Source: Escherichia phage vB_EcoM_CRJP21. Taken from it: a stretch of DNA of 64,000 nt. A program made the position numbers and the translations under genes. The notes under the pieces were generated by a model, which saw only the letters and a list, made by a program, of their open reading frames with translations, did no database searches and was not told the DNA's origin. Numbering within the stretch: position 1 is the first letter of the stretch; the number at the start of each line of letters is the position of its first letter. The stretch is from the sequence record OQ708376.1. One strand, given 5' to 3'. This document shows positions 41,123 through 48,792 of the stretch, in pieces.

Positions 41123-41524
41123 ATGACTACAGTTGATGATATCTATAGCACTATACGCAATATGAGTACAGATAGAAAAGTATTTGGCGATAAAGAAAAA
41201 TCTAAGTGTTATGGTATTGATTCTTTTGATATAATTTCTTATGAGTACAATACAAGTGGAAATAGTTCACTGAATATCGTCTGTCCTCGTGATCCAGAAA
41301 ATAATTTTATGTATGTTGAAATTAATAATGATGGAATGTTTTTTACAAAAGTTTTAAAAGGTGGAATTAATTACGAACCTATTGAATGTATGAATGAAGA
41401 AACTTTCTTTCAAGAAGATACAATTATCAATTTAGGTTTTAGTTTTGATGATTATAAAACATTAGAACATGACTTTAATCGTTATTATAATGGTTTCTTA
41501 AAGGAGTTAACAATTTATCTATGA
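41123..41524 (+). CDS. hypothetical protein
   Basis: 133-aa ORF. Confidence 0.5.
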   Translation: MTTVDDIYSTIRNMSTDRKVFGDKEKSKCYGIDSFDIISYEYNTSGNSSLNIVCPRDPENNFMYVEINNDGMFFTKVLKGGINYEPIECMNEETFFQEDTIINLGFSFDDYKTLEHDFNRYYNGFLKELTIYL

Positions 41525-42753
41525 ATAACCAATATATTGAACAAACAATAGTGAAACACTTGGCTGGGTCACAAGCCTACGGAACCAGTACACCTGAAAG
41601 TGATACTGATTATCGTGGTATTTTTCTTGCTAATAAAGAATTTATTCTTACACCCTTCTATAAGGTCAAAGAGGTAGCTGATAAAAGCGAAGAAGATACT
41701 AAATTCTATGAGTTGAATCAGTATTTAAAATTATACACTGAAGCTAACCCTAATATTCTTGAATCACTTTGGGTTGAACCTGAACACATTGTTGAAAGTA
41801 CTGAAATTTATGACTATCTTCGTTCATTTAACCAAAAACTTCTTAGTTCCAAGATTGCATTTTCATACACTGGATATGCATATAATCAGATTAAGCGTAT
41901 GACAAATCATCACGGTTGGATGGATAAAGAGCGTATTGCTGAAAAACGATTAAATGAGATTTTAGAAGAACACCCAGTCGATGAGGTTCTTGCGTGGATG
42001 TATGATTCATTTCCACAATATCTTGTTGAACGTTTAGATACATCGAACTTACATCCATTTAATGCTAAAAAGATTGATTTTGAAAAATATATGCGTGATA
42101 CGTCATTGCAGTTAGTTTCGAAAAATCCATTAAAGCAATATCATTTTGTAAGATTAGTGCATAACTACACTACTGATAAAATTCTAGATCGTGATTTCAA
42201 TTTATTGAATTTTAATAATGGCTATGAACTAATTCATTACGGAGAAAACATTTTTGCGATTATTAAAAATCCGAATGAAAGTACTATCAATGGTGATGGT
42301 TCATTGCGTTATTTTTCTAAAGAGCGTAGTACTGAAGAGTTGAAAACCAAACCAGAACTGATTGTCAAATTTAACGAAAAAGAATATCAGGAAAATAGTG
42401 AGAATAGGAAAAGTTATCATAAATGGAAAGAAAATCGTAATGCCAAACGTGCTATTTTAGAATCACAGCACGGATACGATTGTAAACATGCTATGCACAC
42501 AATCCGACTTTTGAATAGTGCAGAAGAAGCATTACAAAGTGGTATTATTCAAGTTAAACGTCCTGATGCACAAATGCTGATGGATATTCGCAATGGTAAG
42601 TGGAAATATGAAGAAGTATTAGAATACTTTGATGATAAAGTAAAATATATTCGTGATGTTCTATATAAGAAATCTGTACTTCCTAAAAAACCAAACATCA
42701 AATTAGCATCAAAAATTATCATTGATATTAGAGAAATGCAATGGTATAAGTAA
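41521..42753 (+). CDS. Pol-beta superfamily nucleotidyltransferase
   Basis: N-terminal GSQAYGTSTPESDTDYRGIF fits GS...SDxD nucleotidyltransferase signature. Confidence 0.55.
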   Translation: MNNQYIEQTIVKHLAGSQAYGTSTPESDTDYRGIFLANKEFILTPFYKVKEVADKSEEDTKFYELNQYLKLYTEANPNILESLWVEPEHIVESTEIYDYLRSFNQKLLSSKIAFSYTGYAYNQIKRMTNHHGWMDKERIAEKRLNEILEEHPVDEVLAWMYDSFPQYLVERLDTSNLHPFNAKKIDFEKYMRDTSLQLVSKNPLKQYHFVRLVHNYTTDKILDRDFNLLNFNNGYELIHYGENIFAIIKNPNESTINGDGSLRYFSKERSTEELKTKPELIVKFNEKEYQENSENRKSYHKWKENRNAKRAILESQHGYDCKHAMHTIRLLNSAEEALQSGIIQVKRPDAQMLMDIRNGKWKYEEVLEYFDDKVKYIRDVLYKKSVLPKKPNIKLASKIIIDIREMQWYK

Positions 42754-42921
42754 CATATACAAGTGTAATGGTACTAAAAATGCCATTACACTCAATAAAT
42801 ACTCAATATAAATTAACACAAGGATTAAGTATGGCACAACAAATTTTCACAGATATCCACACTACCGGAGTTATTAAATTTCAAAATAATTTTTCTGGTG
42901 CTACTGGTGTAGACATTAAAA

Positions 42922-43458
42922 ATGATGGTTTTAACATTGTCAGTACTCGGATCTATTGATGGTGAAGATAGTTCTCTTAGTGATTCTGTGATTGCATCAT
43001 TCGGAACTAATAAAAACAGTTCTTTTATTATATCTGGATGGACTGGAATGACTGATTCTGAAAATAATGTTAAGATAAAAGCTAAAGCTACTAACGAGAA
43101 TCATGAAACAGAATGGGTAACATTATATGATAGTGCAAGTAATAAGTTATATAATGTATTAAGTTCTAATAATATTTTAATTAATCCACTGTCGGGCAAT
43201 GCTGTTTTTAATATTAATTTATCTGATAGAAATACTACTATTTCGATTGGTGCGGCTCCTACTGAAGTTTATTCAATTACCATCCTATTAACACAACAAA
43301 CAGGTTCAAACCTAGTTAATTGGGGTTCTAATGTTAAATGGTCATATAACAGACCAGTTGTTCTTTCTTATGAAATTGGTGAAAAAGATATTATTTCATT
43401 AGAAACATATGATAAAGGAGTTACATGGTACGGTGCATTAATTAGAGCAGGAGTATGA
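42922..43458 (+). CDS. hypothetical beta-rich protein (possibly fused to upstream ORF 42831-42959 via frameshift)
   Basis: no RBS at 42922; upstream ORF with AAGGA RBS ends at 42959 in another frame; A5 run at 42918-42922. Confidence 0.4.
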   Translation: MMVLTLSVLGSIDGEDSSLSDSVIASFGTNKNSSFIISGWTGMTDSENNVKIKAKATNENHETEWVTLYDSASNKLYNVLSSNNILINPLSGNAVFNINLSDRNTTISIGAAPTEVYSITILLTQQTGSNLVNWGSNVKWSYNRPVVLSYEIGEKDIISLETYDKGVTWYGALIRAGV

Positions 43459-43459
43459 T

Positions 43460-46249
43460 ATGTTAAACAATAATATTGATAATATTGTACAACTTCTTTA
43501 TGGGCATCACAAATTTATTGAAAGAAATACTGGTGATACAATAGACCCAACAGTACAACATTATGTGGTGAATAATCAGGGTGTTTTGGCGAACAACCGT
43601 CATTTTATTAACTATTCTGCAATGGAAGGTCAACCAAACGGTGACGGGACAACAGAAGGTCAAAGTCTATTAATTTTGGGATACATTTATGCGTATCTGG
43701 CAACAAATGATCCAATGTTTTTAGATAAAGCCAAATGGTACTGGGATGCATATCATCAGTACTTTTATGCTGGACGTGAATTACCAGACCCACCAACTCC
43801 ACTTCAATGTAACTGGATAGTTAATGCCAAAGAACCGATTTTGGCTAACTGGCCTTTAGCTGATGATGGATGGCCTACACATGGTGGTTTCAAGGGTGTA
43901 GAATTTACATTTACAAATGGACAATGTAAAATACCACATGGTGCACCTTATTATGGTCAGTTCTTGGATAAAGTAACATTCGCATTCAAAGGTGCTTTAG
44001 CATGGAACCAAATAAATGCGTCAGTAAAAGCATTACTACCAGATGGTAGTGTTGATTGGGATACCCCTGGTGATCAATATGATGTTGACTGGATTATTGA
44101 TTTCATGGGTAGAAAAATCGACTGGGATGGTAATATTTTAGCAGAAGGTTTTGACGAATCTGAAAAAGGAACGGTTCAATTAAAAAATACAACAATTAAT
44201 GGTGTATATAAATTAAATTTTGCTAATCGTCAACCAGTAGAATATGGTGGTGTGATAATTCAACGAAATGAAATGCAACACAACCGACCACTTCATGTTC
44301 CAATTGATTTGGAATTTGCGGATAATGCATCAGATGCAGAATTGTGGTTTAGTGATGCTTCTTATTTGTTATATAAAATAACAAAAGAAAGAAAACATTA
44401 TTTGGGTTGGAAATGTTCATTACTCACATGCTATGCTTATGGTGATATCGACTCCAGAGATAAATTTTTCAGACAAAGTACAATTGTAACCACACCATTC
44501 ACTGATGGTATTTCCTATGAATATTTTTATCCAAGTGATGCTATCGCTAAGTTTGGTAGAAATTCTTTAGGATATATTACTATCAGGCAAGACCAAAGTG
44601 CACAAAGTACAATGGAACAACAAGCTATTTGGTTCAGGGTCAATGCTGATTCTAAATTACTTGTAGATTATGGTGGTGTATGTGATGATGGTAAGCCGTT
44701 ATCATTTAAACCAGTACTGGAATTGTCTAAAACAAAAAATGATCATGATGTAGTAAGATATCGTTGTGGATTACCAGAAAGTAAAGACCAAAATATCACA
44801 CATTCATTAACACCTTTAAGTGCATTTGTTAGAGAAAAGAAAGCAGATGGTTCCCCTTATATAATTGCTGATAGTAGAATAGTTGTTCCTTATGGTGCAG
44901 CTACGTCCGAAATGATATATAGTACTGATATATTAGTTACACGCCGAGATACCATTAATCAGTTAGTTTGTGGTGAAGATGATGGTGCTGTTATTGGATT
45001 TTGGCTATTAGCAACAAATAAGTCTGAAGTTAAATCTTTTACATATCGTTCATATGAAGATGATTACAATATAAGAATTGTAGATGATAATGGTTGGAGA
45101 TGGTGGTGGATGATTCCTGCAACACACGGGGAATGGACTACAATCACACTAAGTTCCGATACATTACGTTTATCTGGGTATCAGCCAAATCATCCAAGTT
45201 CTGACCCAAGACCAGATGCACCAGTATATAGTGAGCTAGAAGATATTACTATTTTACCTGATACAACCCCAGTAGATGGTGTTGCTGCAATAATTGATTG
45301 GTATTGTATTAATGACATTCCAGAATTATATACGGATGCTGACGGTGATGACTATACTATGACATTTTCAATAACAATTGCAGGTGAATCACCATATACT
45401 GCACAGTTAGGGGATTGTGTAATCAAAGATTATTTGTTAAACTCATTGCATTACACACCAGGAACAATACCATTTTCTAACATCACTGACCCGTATGCGA
45501 ACCAGTACTCAGGTTGGCGTGGTTTACCGTATCCAGGTTATCAATATCCAGTGATATATTGTTTTAAAGACCAGCCAGTAGATAACACACGCTTAGGAAA
45601 CATGTTAAGCTTTATGAAAGATTCCCAAACATGGTTTACTCAACAATTCGGTACTGTTGGTCCGTGTGCACAAGCATATGTTTGGAACCGCTGGGATAAC
45701 TTAAAATATGGTGAACCAGATACATTTACTATGCTACATTGGGGTGATCAAGCATGGAGTGGGTATGAACCACGTGCGTTCTTTGGGGCTGCCAGAGCAT
45801 GGCAAGAACTCGCAGAGAGAGGAATTGAACCACCAGCAGATCTTGTTGAATTTTGTGAGAATTGGATTCACTTTTTAATTCAATTTCAAAAAGATAATGA
45901 TGGTCGTTCACCAACAATCTTCAATAAAGATGGCACAGTTGAAGGTCCAGATTGGGACTTTACAGGTCATATGTGTGGGTTGTGGTTAGCTGGGGCTTGT
46001 GCTGCTGGATTGGCTGGATGTAAAATAGAAGGTCTAACAACACTCGCTGATAACTTAGTTCTCGAACTTCAAAAGAATTATGTTATTGTAAATCCAGGTT
46101 CCCCAATGAATGGTTCATGGAGTCCAGCAGTTAGAGAAGGTACTGATAATGGTATGTTTTTTGGTTTCTGGGCAGGTGAGATTATGCGTGGATTGGGGTT
46201 ATACTCAATGTACCGTTTAAACACACCAAATCGTTTCCGTGATTTATAA
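43460..46249 (+). CDS. large hypothetical protein (Trp-rich)
   Basis: 929-aa ORF. Confidence 0.55.
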   Translation: MLNNNIDNIVQLLYGHHKFIERNTGDTIDPTVQHYVVNNQGVLANNRHFINYSAMEGQPNGDGTTEGQSLLILGYIYAYLATNDPMFLDKAKWYWDAYHQYFYAGRELPDPPTPLQCNWIVNAKEPILANWPLADDGWPTHGGFKGVEFTFTNGQCKIPHGAPYYGQFLDKVTFAFKGALAWNQINASVKALLPDGSVDWDTPGDQYDVDWIIDFMGRKIDWDGNILAEGFDESEKGTVQLKNTTINGVYKLNFANRQPVEYGGVIIQRNEMQHNRPLHVPIDLEFADNASDAELWFSDASYLLYKITKERKHYLGWKCSLLTCYAYGDIDSRDKFFRQSTIVTTPFTDGISYEYFYPSDAIAKFGRNSLGYITIRQDQSAQSTMEQQAIWFRVNADSKLLVDYGGVCDDGKPLSFKPVLELSKTKNDHDVVRYRCGLPESKDQNITHSLTPLSAFVREKKADGSPYIIADSRIVVPYGAATSEMIYSTDILVTRRDTINQLVCGEDDGAVIGFWLLATNKSEVKSFTYRSYEDDYNIRIVDDNGWRWWWMIPATHGEWTTITLSSDTLRLSGYQPNHPSSDPRPDAPVYSELEDITILPDTTPVDGVAAIIDWYCINDIPELYTDADGDDYTMTFSITIAGESPYTAQLGDCVIKDYLLNSLHYTPGTIPFSNITDPYANQYSGWRGLPYPGYQYPVIYCFKDQPVDNTRLGNMLSFMKDSQTWFTQQFGTVGPCAQAYVWNRWDNLKYGEPDTFTMLHWGDQAWSGYEPRAFFGAARAWQELAERGIEPPADLVEFCENWIHFLIQFQKDNDGRSPTIFNKDGTVEGPDWDFTGHMCGLWLAGACAAGLAGCKIEGLTTLADNLVLELQKNYVIVNPGSPMNGSWSPAVREGTDNGMFFGFWAGEIMRGLGLYSMYRLNTPNRFRDL

Positions 46250-46250
46250 C

Positions 46251-46279
46251 TTGACATAGAAAAAGTAATTATGTATAAT
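46251..46279 (+). promoter_or_regulatory. consensus sigma70 promoter TTGACA-17-TGTATAAT
   Basis: TTGACA 46251-46256, TATAAT 46274-46279 with upstream TG. Confidence 0.6.
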
Positions 46280-46280
46280 T

Positions 46281-46310
46281 AGAGAACTTCATATGGAGTT
46301 CTCTTTTTTT
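46281..46310 (+). terminator. intrinsic terminator
   Basis: AGAGAACTTCAT / ATGGAGTTCTCT stem then TTTTTTT. Confidence 0.6.
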
Positions 46311-46323
46311 ATAAGGTGATAAA

Positions 46324-46743
46324 ATGTTAAATGAACGTATTAAAAATGCACTACATGTATTGAATCAAGAAGTCAATTCTATTCATAAAAGTACTGACCG
46401 TTATAAAGTAATGCATGAAATCAAACAAGAATTGGAATCTATTAATAAGGGAGAGTGGTGGTATCTTCAGCCCGAATATCAAACTCGTGAATTAAACGAT
46501 GTTGAAAAAGAAATTGTCAAATTCATCACTACTCGTTATTGTGATACATCAGAGAATGATGTATCAGCGAACTTCAATCTTACTAAATTGGAAGTCGAAG
46601 AAAAATTCCATTTTGATTGGCTTGATTGGATTGAAATGGTAATGGAACTAGAAGAAAAATTCAATGTTGAAGTTGATGAAAAGTTCGAGAATAATGAAAC
46701 TAAGCTGTATGAACTAGTAGAACATATTCAAAAAATGTTGTAA
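46324..46743 (+). CDS. protein with ACP-like C-terminal domain lacking carrier serine
   Basis: FDWLDWIEMVMELEEKF aligns to ACP DSLDTVELVMALEEEF with Ser replaced by Trp. Confidence 0.5.
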   Translation: MLNERIKNALHVLNQEVNSIHKSTDRYKVMHEIKQELESINKGEWWYLQPEYQTRELNDVEKEIVKFITTRYCDTSENDVSANFNLTKLEVEEKFHFDWLDWIEMVMELEEKFNVEVDEKFENNETKLYELVEHIQKML

Positions 46744-46796
46744 AACTATACAATTGTATACTCTAAATAATATCATCAACTATAGGAGATATTATT

Positions 46797-47171
46797 ATGA
46801 GTATGTTAGAAATAATTGTTTCAAAAATTCTTATTCCATTTTGGAAACCAATTTCTTTTGTATTATTAATTGGCGGTTCAGCTTATGCTGGTTGGGAAGC
46901 TAATACTTATTACAGTGGATATCAACAAAGCATAGAGCAACAAATAGCTAAAAAAGTTGATACCGCCTTGGATAAAATGCAACAAGAAAATGCAAAAAAT
47001 TACCTTGAAACTAAAAAAATCATGGAAGATAATGCTAAAGTTATTGAAACAAAGGTTCCTTTTATTGTAGAACGTGAAGTTTATAAGAATGTATGTTTAG
47101 ATGAAGATGGTGTAAAAGTACTGAATGAACTAAAACAAAATTCTCAAGCTGCGAGGAATAAATTCAAATGA
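46797..47171 (+). CDS. putative i-spanin
   Basis: N-terminal TM, charged helical periplasmic region, overlaps lipoprotein gene. Confidence 0.5.
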   Translation: MSMLEIIVSKILIPFWKPISFVLLIGGSAYAGWEANTYYSGYQQSIEQQIAKKVDTALDKMQQENAKNYLETKKIMEDNAKVIETKVPFIVEREVYKNVCLDEDGVKVLNELKQNSQAARNKFK

Positions 47172-47476
47172 AAAAATTATTAGTTCCGTTTATTTCTTTT
47201 TTAATTATAAGTGGATGTGCAGAACAAGTAAAACTACAATCCCCTACACCAATTAAACAAGAAATTCTGTTAGAAAGATGTGATGATGATACACCTCTAC
47301 CACAAAAAATTATGATTGACAAAAATGGTTTTAAAGGTTATGATGGTGCAGAAATTCTTAAAGTACTTACTCGTTGGGATGCAGTATACAACGAATGTGC
47401 TTTAAAACATGATGCATTAATTAAAACTATTCGTGATTTACAAGGTAAAGATATTAAAATCAATATCAAGGAATAA
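47168..47476 (+). CDS. putative o-spanin (lipoprotein)
   Basis: signal + lipobox ISGC; additional Cys residues; ATGA overlap with i-spanin. Confidence 0.55.
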   Translation: MKKLLVPFISFLIISGCAEQVKLQSPTPIKQEILLERCDDDTPLPQKIMIDKNGFKGYDGAEILKVLTRWDAVYNECALKHDALIKTIRDLQGKDIKINIKE

Positions 47477-47477
47477 A

Positions 47478-48089
47478 ATGAACAAATATCATGTTTACTA
47501 TACGACCAAATTATCACTTCTTGACGAATTAAATCAACGAAGTACTAAGATGAAACGCTACACTTTAAATGGTATTACTTTTCGATATTTCCCACAAAAA
47601 GTTCTTACATTTATTAAGAATCCAAAATGCGTGGCATGTGGGATTGAAGCTACTGAAGTACGCATTGAACGTTCATTATGTTCTGATCCAGTATATGGTA
47701 AACCACATTTAAATGTATATGCTGTATGTGGTCTTTATGAAGTTTTAATGACAGTTGACCATAATCATCTGGCATCTAAGGGTGGACCTGATTTAGAGTC
47801 AAACTTTAATACTATGTGCTCCAGATGTAATCAACTACGTTCGAATAAAACTGAAACAGTTGATGAGTTTCTTGAGAAAGTTAAAGGTCGTAATCTTCTC
47901 CAAGAACATATGAATAATTTCTTTAATGTACAAAAAAAGAAAAATAACATTGACAAGTCGAAACTACTAGAAGAACGTAGGTTACGTCAAGAATTATGGG
48001 AAACTGATCATCTATGGCATGTTCGAGAGTTTGGTCGTCATATGAAAGCATTGAAAAAAGAACAGAAGAAATTGAATAAACATGATTGA
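47478..48089 (+). CDS. HNH endonuclease
   Basis: CVACG ... VDHNHLASKGG ... CSRCN (HNH with zinc-binding Cys pairs). Confidence 0.7.
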   Translation: MNKYHVYYTTKLSLLDELNQRSTKMKRYTLNGITFRYFPQKVLTFIKNPKCVACGIEATEVRIERSLCSDPVYGKPHLNVYAVCGLYEVLMTVDHNHLASKGGPDLESNFNTMCSRCNQLRSNKTETVDEFLEKVKGRNLLQEHMNNFFNVQKKKNNIDKSKLLEERRLRQELWETDHLWHVREFGRHMKALKKEQKKLNKHD

Positions 48090-48101
48090 TATGATATTAT
48101 A

Positions 48102-48131
48102 GGGACTTGAGTATTCAAGTCCTTTTTTTTT
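48102..48131 (+). terminator. intrinsic terminator
   Basis: GGGACTTGA-gtat-TCAAGTCC then T9. Confidence 0.65.
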
Positions 48132-48142
48132 GGAGAAAATAT

Positions 48143-48415
48143 ATGAAAACAAAATTATTTCCACAACAAATAATGATTGAACTGTGCGAACATCAGTCTG
48201 GTGAAGTTGTTACAATCAGTGGTGATACGTATTCCATCATTTTAAATGAACAACAATTTGATCATACAAACCATACGAATGAACTGTATAATCTTATGTT
48301 TATGGACGATAAGAGTGAAAAATACTATCATTGTACATATGAACGATGTATAGATACAACACCATTTTGTAATGAAATGGTTGGTGTTAAATGTTATGAA
48401 TGTGAAGTGTTATGA
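48143..48415 (+). CDS. hypothetical Cys-rich protein, tandem paralog 1 of 2
   Basis: MKTKLFPQQIMIELCEH ... KYYHCTYER. Confidence 0.5.
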   Translation: MKTKLFPQQIMIELCEHQSGEVVTISGDTYSIILNEQQFDHTNHTNELYNLMFMDDKSEKYYHCTYERCIDTTPFCNEMVGVKCYECEVL

Positions 48416-48435: not shown

Positions 48436-48792
48436 ATGAAAACAAAAATCTTTCTACCACAAACCATGATGGAACTGTGTGAACATGATGCAGGGGATGT
48501 TGTCACTATTAGTGGTTCCTGGAATGAGAGTACTGAAGACTTTATGCCAGATGAGGTATATTCTGTTGTTTTAAATGAACAGTACAATACAAGCCGTTGG
48601 AATGCACAGTACAATCTAGTTTTTCTTGACAATAACAATGAAAAGTACTATCATTGTACGTATGAACGAGGTCTGACAGAACGTAACTACACAACTCCTT
48701 TCTGTGATGAAATGGATGGTGTAAAGTGCTATGAAGTTTATGTTCGTCAGGTTCCAGTTGTTACTTACAAAACCGAGTGGGATTATCTGTAA
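48436..48792 (+). CDS. hypothetical Cys-rich protein, tandem paralog 2 of 2
   Basis: MKTKIFLPQTMMELCEH ... KYYHCTYER. Confidence 0.5.
   Translation: MKTKIFLPQTMMELCEHDAGDVVTISGSWNESTEDFMPDEVYSVVLNEQYNTSRWNAQYNLVFLDNNNEKYYHCTYERGLTERNYTTPFCDEMDGVKCYEVYVRQVPVVTYKTEWDYL

Follow-up and report, generated by a model that had tools for sequence, protein, structure and literature searches.

What could a protein with the fold of an acyl carrier protein (ACP) do for a phage if a tryptophan stands where the carrier serine should be? The question is raised by a gene at positions 46,324–46,743 of a 64,000-nucleotide stretch of DNA from Escherichia phage vB_EcoM_CRJP21 (sequence record OQ708376.1), the whole of which was analyzed and is called the window below. 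The window is 98–99% identical to the Escherichia jumbo phages of the 121Q/PBECO4 group (genus Asteriusvirus). A reading made from the sequence alone had described an ACP-like domain with tryptophan in place of the phosphopantetheine serine, and the open reading frame, the alignments and a structural model all agree with this description.

The protein, its fold and its recognition helix

The gene and its protein have the following features:

46,313–46,319, + strand: Shine–Dalgarno sequence AAGGTGA, 4 nt 5' of the ATG, read directly from the sequence
46,324–46,743, + strand: coding sequence of 139 residues, pI 4.75, without a hydrophobic segment; equals 121Q gp510 and phAPEC6 gp313c
46,324–46,497, + strand: N-terminal domain (residues 1–58); in the AF2 model a helical hairpin (helices 2–19 and 25–41) followed by a low-confidence linker
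46,498–46,740, + strand: ACP-fold domain (residues 59–139), pI 4.35
46,615–46,662, + strand: helix II, the "recognition helix", D98 to F113, aligned to E. coli DSLDTVELVMALEEEF
46,618–46,620, + strand: TGG codon of Trp99, at the phosphopantetheine serine position (E. coli Ser36) in the alignments
46,627–46,629, + strand: TGG codon of Trp102, at the E. coli Thr39 position

The window protein is 100% identical to both 121Q gp510, which is labeled "hypothetical protein", and phAPEC6 gp313c, which is labeled "acyl carrier protein". It is a soluble, acidic protein (GRAVY −0.79), and no membrane or periplasmic targeting (TM segment, signal sequence or lipobox) was found in it; its maximum 19-residue Kyte–Doolittle value was 0.06, compared with 1.81 for Rz and 1.51 for Rz1.

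The sequence searches point to ACPs alone, but weakly. When the PDB was searched with phmmer, nearly all of the matches were ACPs (best E ~1e-3), with D98-W99-L100-D101 falling on the D-S-L-D of the carriers, and the PHROG ACP families matched at 1e-7 and 5e-6. The match to TIGR00517 (NCBIfam; 2.6e-5) reached 24 bits against a cut-off of 70.45, that to Pfam PP-binding_2 (PF14573; 0.0016) reached 19.1 bits against a cut-off of 32, and the Pfam scan gave no match to PF00550 (PP-binding). The full-length match was phrog_18343 (1.3e-61, residues 2–139).

The AF2 model had a pLDDT of 83 overall and of 87–94 in helices II–IV, and helix II starts at W99. When it was searched with Foldseek, all top matches were ACPs (TM ~0.7–0.78), and the C-terminal domain formed a four-helix ACP bundle. 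The sequence-only reading had made structure prediction its own check, a fold other than that of an ACP being the outcome against it, and it came through this check. It had also placed the ACP similarity in the C-terminal part of the protein; the alignment of helix II stands, but the similarity extends over the whole 81-residue domain, and the 58-residue N-terminal domain had been left unmentioned. The latter carries a turn motif, S23-x-D/E-R26-Y27, and has no recognizable Pfam family. Its identification as an LYR-type or other known module was tried and found unsupported, as ten diverse N-terminal segments searched against Pfam at E ≤10 returned only inconsistent noise. The arrangement of the two domains is uncertain in the model (pTM 0.61), and full-length superposition on relatives gave 8–18 Å rmsd.

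The top viral structural match, BFVD A0A2Z5HFQ2, is 72% identical over 138 columns within a 432-residue entry, which is possibly a mis-called or fused open reading frame of an Ecwhy_1-type phage.

With E. coli AcpP (PF00550), the phage protein has in common the acidic pI, helix II and the equivalents of D35, D38, E41, E47 and E48. On the other hand, it has tryptophan in place of both the attachment serine and Thr39, it carries the extra N-terminal domain, and it scores below all curated family cut-offs. Because it lacks the attachment serine and falls below these cut-offs, it ought not to be classified among the acyl carrier proteins.

The match between helix II of the window protein (DWLDWIEMVMELEEKF) and that of E. 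coli AcpP (DSLDTVELVMALEEEF) is nearly residue for residue. Its acidic residues D98, D101, E104, E110 and E111 are the equivalents of D35, D38, E41, E47 and E48, and across the 24 sequences of the family, D98 and D101 are present in all 24, E104 in 22 (with D in the other two) and E110 in 23, and E111 is nearly invariant. In E. coli ACP, neutralizing D35, E41 and E47/E48 abolishes recognition by AcpS (bioRxiv 10.1101/2025.01.28.635281).

The conserved serine of D-S-L at the N-terminus of helix II, by contrast, is absent, and Trp99 stands there. Helix II and the residues adjacent to it contain no serine, the nearest being S81. A sequencing error can be ruled out, since the TGG codon occurs in two sub-clades that are just 72% identical and in many deposited genomes. 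As far as the sequence can tell, a protein with tryptophan at the attachment site cannot be phosphopantetheinylated in the canonical way, and the claim that the protein cannot be a functional carrier was sound to this extent; neither phosphopantetheinylation nor acyl thioesters are predicted to occur in vivo.

Relatives in other jumbo phages

A word-indexed search of 5.8 billion proteins returned 11 relatives, and a profile search of 1.8 billion representatives returned 20 matches, ~12 of them two-domain relatives and the remainder ordinary ACPs near E 1e-4. As traced by tblastn, the family ranges over Asteriusvirus, Alcyoneusvirus (RaK2, K64-1), Mimasvirus (CBB, GAP32), Eneladusvirus (BF, Yen9, pEa_SNUABM), the Munch-like phages and Kaldavass. 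Of the 46 phage genomes with a match, most have an intact open reading frame, as do metagenomic contigs; proteins of the 121Q type (at least 90% identity) are present in 21 deposited phage genomes. A tblastn search with E. coli AcpP as the query found no AcpP-like gene, and hence no second, canonical ACP, in any Rak2-like phage. From its full-length similarity and its S/T-x-D/E-R-Y turn, we assign the window protein to a Rak2-like jumbo-phage family of two-domain ACP-like proteins (phrog_18343 and relatives), in which CBB gp163, GAP32 gp159, Serratia BF_0158, Yen9-03 g156 and Munch gp181 have the same architecture, the same motif and the same slot before the spanin genes.

The census of 24 sequences yielded two groups, both of which keep the turn motif of the N-terminal domain:

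Group 1 (8 sequences): CBB, GAP32, BF, Yen9-03, Munch, Kaldavass, P0021 and P0027; canonical LDSLD with serine in 8 of 8; position +3 variable
Group 2 (16 sequences): Asteriusvirus, RaK2 and metagenomic relatives; serine position held by S (5), W (4), D (2) and R, E, K, N and T (1 each); Trp at position +3 (Trp102) in 16 of 16

The "acyl carrier proteins" of the group-1 jumbo phages (Mimasvirus, Eneladusvirus and others) thus differ from the window protein both in their strictly kept serine and in lacking the invariant +3 tryptophan. Against the PF00550 cut-off of 20.8 bits, the group-1 proteins of CBB and BF scored 35.6 and 38.0 bits and that of Munch fell just under, whereas the five group-2 proteins scanned (window, P0009, JNE01, RaK2 and P0018) were below the cut-off or gave no match. 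In the Asteriusvirus/RaK2 branch, the serine position is unconstrained, with eight residue types, and the invariant residue there is Trp102, not Trp99. Conservation of the gene with a strict serine in one set of genera, and with serine loss and Trp102 gain in the other, amounts to a family-level switch.

Trp99 itself fits one Ser-to-Trp event. In the NJ tree, which is a simple one for lineages with evident recombination among them, the Trp sequences (121Q-type and Ecwhy_1-type, 72% identical and both with TGG) form one clade, and the sister of this clade consists of Ser-bearing Asteriusvirus sequences, with TCA or TCT at the same codon.

Several mosaics were observed. Compared with the related locus L001, the window is 94% identical in Rz1 and only 69% identical in the ACP-like protein, and Rz of locus L005 is 94% identical to that of L004. 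Within the ACP-like protein, the N-terminal half of the window sequence groups with the Ser-bearing P0011 and the C-terminal half with the other Trp clade. These patterns indicate recombination within and around the gene.

Is the gene still under selection? The dN/dS ratio was 0.22 between the two Trp clades and 0.22–0.33 among the Asteriusvirus orthologues, compared with ~0.1 for Rz. Such values, of ~0.2–0.3, argue that the gene is under purifying selection, yet fast-evolving. Between the window phage and RaK2, identity was 28–31% for the ACP-like protein but 74% for the NTase, 57% for Rz and 41% for Rz1, and the group-1 orthologues are just 17–25% identical to the window protein. Divergence so much faster than that of the neighbors would be expected with a co-evolving partner no less than with a host enzyme of very high conservation.

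In three Asteriusvirus genomes of Salmonella phages, the 3' end of the gene has lesions, as alignment to window positions 46,560–46,830 shows. In SD-6_S16 (L022), a 39-bp in-frame deletion removes helix IV; in SD-1_S14 (L021), a deletion of ~130 bp extends across the intergenic motif and reaches the first codons of Rz; and in SD-15_S21 (P0004), a frameshift leads to a 192-residue read-through product. These lesions may mean either that the gene is dispensable on Salmonella or that the assemblies contain errors.

The promoter, the spanin genes and the upstream slot

The elements that flank the gene, and the spanin genes that follow it, are these:

46,251–46,279, + strand: sigma-70-type promoter, TTGACA (46,251–46,256), 17 nt, TATAAT (46,274–46,279)
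46,281–46,311, + strand: terminator-like hairpin with a 10-bp stem and a 4-nt loop, then T7; 2 nt 3' of the −10 hexamer; −13 kcal/mol, z −4.4
46,760–46,790, + strand: intergenic element ACTCTAAATAATATCATCAACTATAGGAGAT with a T4-type late-promoter-like TAAATA and the Shine–Dalgarno sequence of the i-spanin gene; near-invariant in 4 lineages
46,797–47,171, + strand: Rz-like i-spanin (phrog_1152; hydropathy)
47,168–47,476, + strand: lipobox protein, o-spanin (ISGC lipobox; hydropathy)

The promoter had been called the best consensus promoter of the window, and it is indeed the sole 12/12 match in the 64 kb. An extended −10 (TGnTATAAT) was considered and rejected, as the TG directly abuts TATAAT. 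The promoter module is kept upstream of the orthologues in L001 and L004 and is missing from L005, RaK2 and CBB, in which the gene directly adjoins its upstream neighbor or overlaps it; a sigma-70 promoter of its own thus appears to be limited to part of Asteriusvirus. Expression from such a promoter would be early.

A transcript that starts ~7 nt after the −10 hexamer would begin within the left arm of the hairpin. Consequently, the hairpin would terminate only the read-through from the tail-fiber gene and spare the promoter-initiated RNA. At 48,072–48,124, a promoter-like site (9/12, with TG) is likewise followed at once by a 10-bp hairpin and a T-run, in the layout of 46,251–46,311. The two sites together suggest a recurrent design, with terminator and promoter overlapping.

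Downstream of the gene, the element at 46,760–46,790 (CTCTAAATAATA...) is conserved above the flanking coding sequence, and its putative function is that of a late promoter; it resembles the ATAAATA late motif that has been described for CBB and GAP32 (PMC5259590). A perfect 14-nt palindrome, TATACAATTGTATA, lies directly 5' of the strongly conserved late-promoter-like CTCTAAATAATATCATCAACTATAGGAGAT element upstream of the i-spanin gene (window 46,747–46,790); relatives do not share the palindrome. In the annotation of phage Munch, a terminator stands between the ACP-like gene and Rz. Given the promoter upstream of the gene, the late-promoter-like motif before Rz and the Munch terminator, the ACP-like gene and the spanin genes probably belong to separate transcription units.

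The order ACP-like gene, i-spanin, o-spanin was found in every relative examined (window 46,324–47,476 and ~15 related loci). An HNH gene usually comes next after the o-spanin, but the loci of CBB, GAP32, BF and Kaldavass lack it. In the window, this HNH endonuclease gene lies at 47,433–48,089, and it keeps this position after the spanins in Asteriusvirus, in RaK2 and Munch, and in several relatives from metagenomes, so that it behaves as a resident gene rather than as a mobile homing endonuclease. Two adjacent open reading frames farther on, 48,107–48,415 (102 residues) and 48,436–48,792 (118 residues), are clear paralogues, with a shared pattern that begins MKTK..F.PQ..M.ELCEH..G.VVTISG and ends YHCTYER...TPFC.EM.GVKCYE.

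The upstream neighbor, on the other hand, varies. It is a tail-fiber module in the window, an RlaP-type NTase gene directly in L001, L005 and L015, and a phrog_21561 gene that overlaps the start of the ACP-like gene in RaK2, CBB, BF and Munch; open reading frames of 146 and 287 residues occupy the position in other lineages. The tail-fiber module of the window (42,768–46,249), an insertion that only some members of Asteriusvirus have, comprises a 63-residue open reading frame, a 178-residue fiber protein (phrog_32568) and a 929-residue fiber, and is placed between the NTase gene (41,521–42,753) and the ACP-like gene; in RaK2 and CBB, three unrelated small open reading frames fill the same slot. 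The slot has the marks of a gene-turnover hotspot. A conserved upstream partner gene was looked for and rejected, as RaK2 ORF006–008 and CBB gp160–162 (phrog_10375, phrog_21561), the genes that in other genera overlap the start of the ACP-like gene, have no homologue in the window.

The phAPEC6 virion proteome of 62 proteins contains the adjacent fiber protein gp314c and lacks the ACP-like protein (PMC7247149). A role as a virion component or tail-fiber chaperone was judged unlikely on account of this absence and of the lineage-specific nature of the fiber module, although in Eneladusvirus the protein was detected in virion preparations.

Possible functions of the ACP-fold protein

Because the acidic face of helix II is preserved, we propose that the ACP-fold protein works as a docking or adaptor module without a prosthetic group, that is, by binding a partner and not by carrying acyl groups, and we give this reading a probability of about one half. 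The gene is the Asteriusvirus orthologue of a Rak2-like jumbo-phage gene that in sister genera keeps a canonical, serine-bearing ACP domain, and its product joins a jumbo-phage-specific helical hairpin at the N-terminus to a C-terminal ACP-fold domain that became independent of the prosthetic group. In the Asteriusvirus/Alcyoneusvirus branch, fixation of a tryptophan a single helical turn past the start of helix II (W102) accompanied the loss of constraint on the attachment serine; in the 121Q lineage, the serine position itself is tryptophan (W99), leaving no phosphopantetheinylation and no acyl shuttling. The acidic face of helix II (the D35, D38, E41, E47 and E48 equivalents) is kept by selection and would dock on a basic, ACP-client-type surface of a partner protein, with the aromatic residue or residues at the head of helix II taking over the contribution of the pantetheine arm, as Phe113 does in the mitochondrial ACP of Plasmodium.

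This Plasmodium protein (mACP) is the closest precedent. In P. falciparum, its serine is replaced by Phe113, which is needed for binding to Isd11 (PMC8547962). Both are ACP-fold proteins with a bulky aromatic residue in place of the phosphopantetheine serine, and both are retained under selection, the phage protein at a dN/dS of 0.22 between the Trp clades. On the other hand, mACP is a eukaryotic, organellar protein with a known LYR-motif partner, whereas Pfam searches recognized no LYR-like partner or domain on the phage side, and beyond the common fold, there is no specific homology between the two. In addition, the aromatic residue of mACP is at the serine position, whereas the one that is invariant in the phage family (group 2) is at +3.

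By this analogy, we infer that the tryptophans substitute for the pantetheine arm, and the pattern of serine loss and Trp102 gain suggests that an aromatic residue has replaced the contribution of the arm. Such a residue could act in the partner interface, or it could fill the acyl pocket and stabilize the apo fold, which may be all that W102 does. In group 2, residues well suited to capping the N-terminus of a helix (S, T, D, N) are frequent at the serine position, so W99 may be neutral and simply tolerated, and not a functional stand-in. Similarly, the conservation of helix II could arise partly from fold stability or cation binding and not from docking.

Could the partner be a host enzyme that the phage puts out of action? 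In this alternative, which we regard as possible but clearly less likely than a docking module, an obligate apo-ACP mimic made early in infection would titrate the host enzymes that dock on helix II (AcpS, PlsB, LpxA/D, FabH, SpoT, MukB) and thereby stop lipid synthesis or another ACP-dependent process. The helix II determinants that AcpS uses are intact, Trp99 bars conversion to the holo form, and the protein is not among the phAPEC6 virion proteins. The only perfect sigma-70 promoter of the window stands before the gene, with a hairpin that would insulate it from upstream late transcription. According to a passage in PMC4736557 that cites Keating 1995, overexpression of an obligate apo-ACP (S39A) suppresses the growth of E. 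coli, and apo-ACP inhibits glycerol-3-phosphate acyltransferase. Obligate apo-ACP mutants (S36/S39 substitutions), which the same passage gives as toxic to E. coli, are unmodifiable and keep helix II, as the phage protein does, although they were made in the laboratory from the ACP of the host itself. The growth suppression by an obligate apo-ACP and the host-type promoter make such a mimic plausible.

The surface that an ACP mimic would target is almost invariant among Enterobacterales. An identity of only 28–31% between the window and RaK2 proteins is odd for a mimic of such a surface, and in the sister genera, which keep the serine strictly, host AcpS would convert the protein to the holo form. 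Titration is weakened by this fast divergence, by the strict serine and by the conserved N-terminal domain, which it leaves unexplained along with the invariant W102; moreover, the promoter is confined to part of Asteriusvirus, and elsewhere the gene overlaps its upstream neighbor.

A bolder form of the argument, to which we would attach slightly less weight than to titration, is a carrier-to-mimic series, in which an ancestral serine-bearing phage ACP became a prosthetic-group-free effector in Asteriusvirus/Alcyoneusvirus. Its tryptophans at the head of helix II would do the work of the acyl-pantetheine arm, and what it plugs or hijacks would be either an ACP client of the host (AcpS, PlsB, LpxA/D, SpoT, MukB) or a co-evolved phage partner; it would be the first viral ACP mimic.

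An accessory role in the lysis module seems improbable. Here, the protein would be a cytoplasmic factor tied to the i-/o-spanin pair that, for example, aids the synthesis of the spanins or the o-spanin lipoprotein or sets its timing. The constant order of the three genes, while the upstream neighbor changes, speaks for this role, but these phages keep synteny over the entire region, which makes adjacency little informative. Adjacency to the spanins was noted earlier in Eneladusvirus, and the ACP-like protein was detected there by LC-MS/MS in virion preparations (PMC7760394), a detection that may reflect either contamination or true association. The protein lacks a TM segment or signal sequence, whereas spanins are periplasmic; the conserved late-promoter-like element, and in Munch an annotated terminator, lie between the genes; and in most genera, the gene overlaps the one upstream. 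Lipoprotein acylation, for its part, draws on phospholipids and not on acyl-ACP as donors. Furthermore, the endolysin gene is ~22 genes away (121Q gp532; PMC5259590).

Least probable of all is that the protein is a relic, decaying or neutral, of a former phage ACP, or a carrier by non-canonical attachment, with no docking function: the unconstrained serine position, the fast divergence and the three Salmonella genomes, whose 3'-end lesions suggest that the gene may be dispensable, would fit a relic, but the dN/dS of 0.2–0.3, the intact frame in most of the 46 matched genomes and in metagenomic contigs, the invariance of D98 and D101 in the family and of W102 in group 2, and the chance that the lesions are assembly errors go against it, and a non-canonical carrier has no serine in or next to helix II to use, the nearest being S81.

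In the literature, no Asteriusvirus transcriptome was found, nor was any description of the serine loss or the Trp102 switch, or any functional study of the ACP-like protein. Database labels that call the Asteriusvirus and RaK2 proteins "acyl carrier protein", "acpP" or "D-alanyl carrier protein" mislead as to function. What defines an ACP is its prosthetic arm, and only a handful of natural proteins with this fold are known to function in its absence; of these, mACP of Plasmodium has been studied best. One orthologous phage gene that exists in both states, with a strict serine or with an unconstrained serine position and a fixed tryptophan, offers a comparative system for what the ACP fold does beyond carrying. 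Should an ACP client of the host prove to be the partner, the protein would represent a phage effector of host takeover of a new type, and inhibitors of ACP-dependent enzymes could be modeled on it as a natural template.
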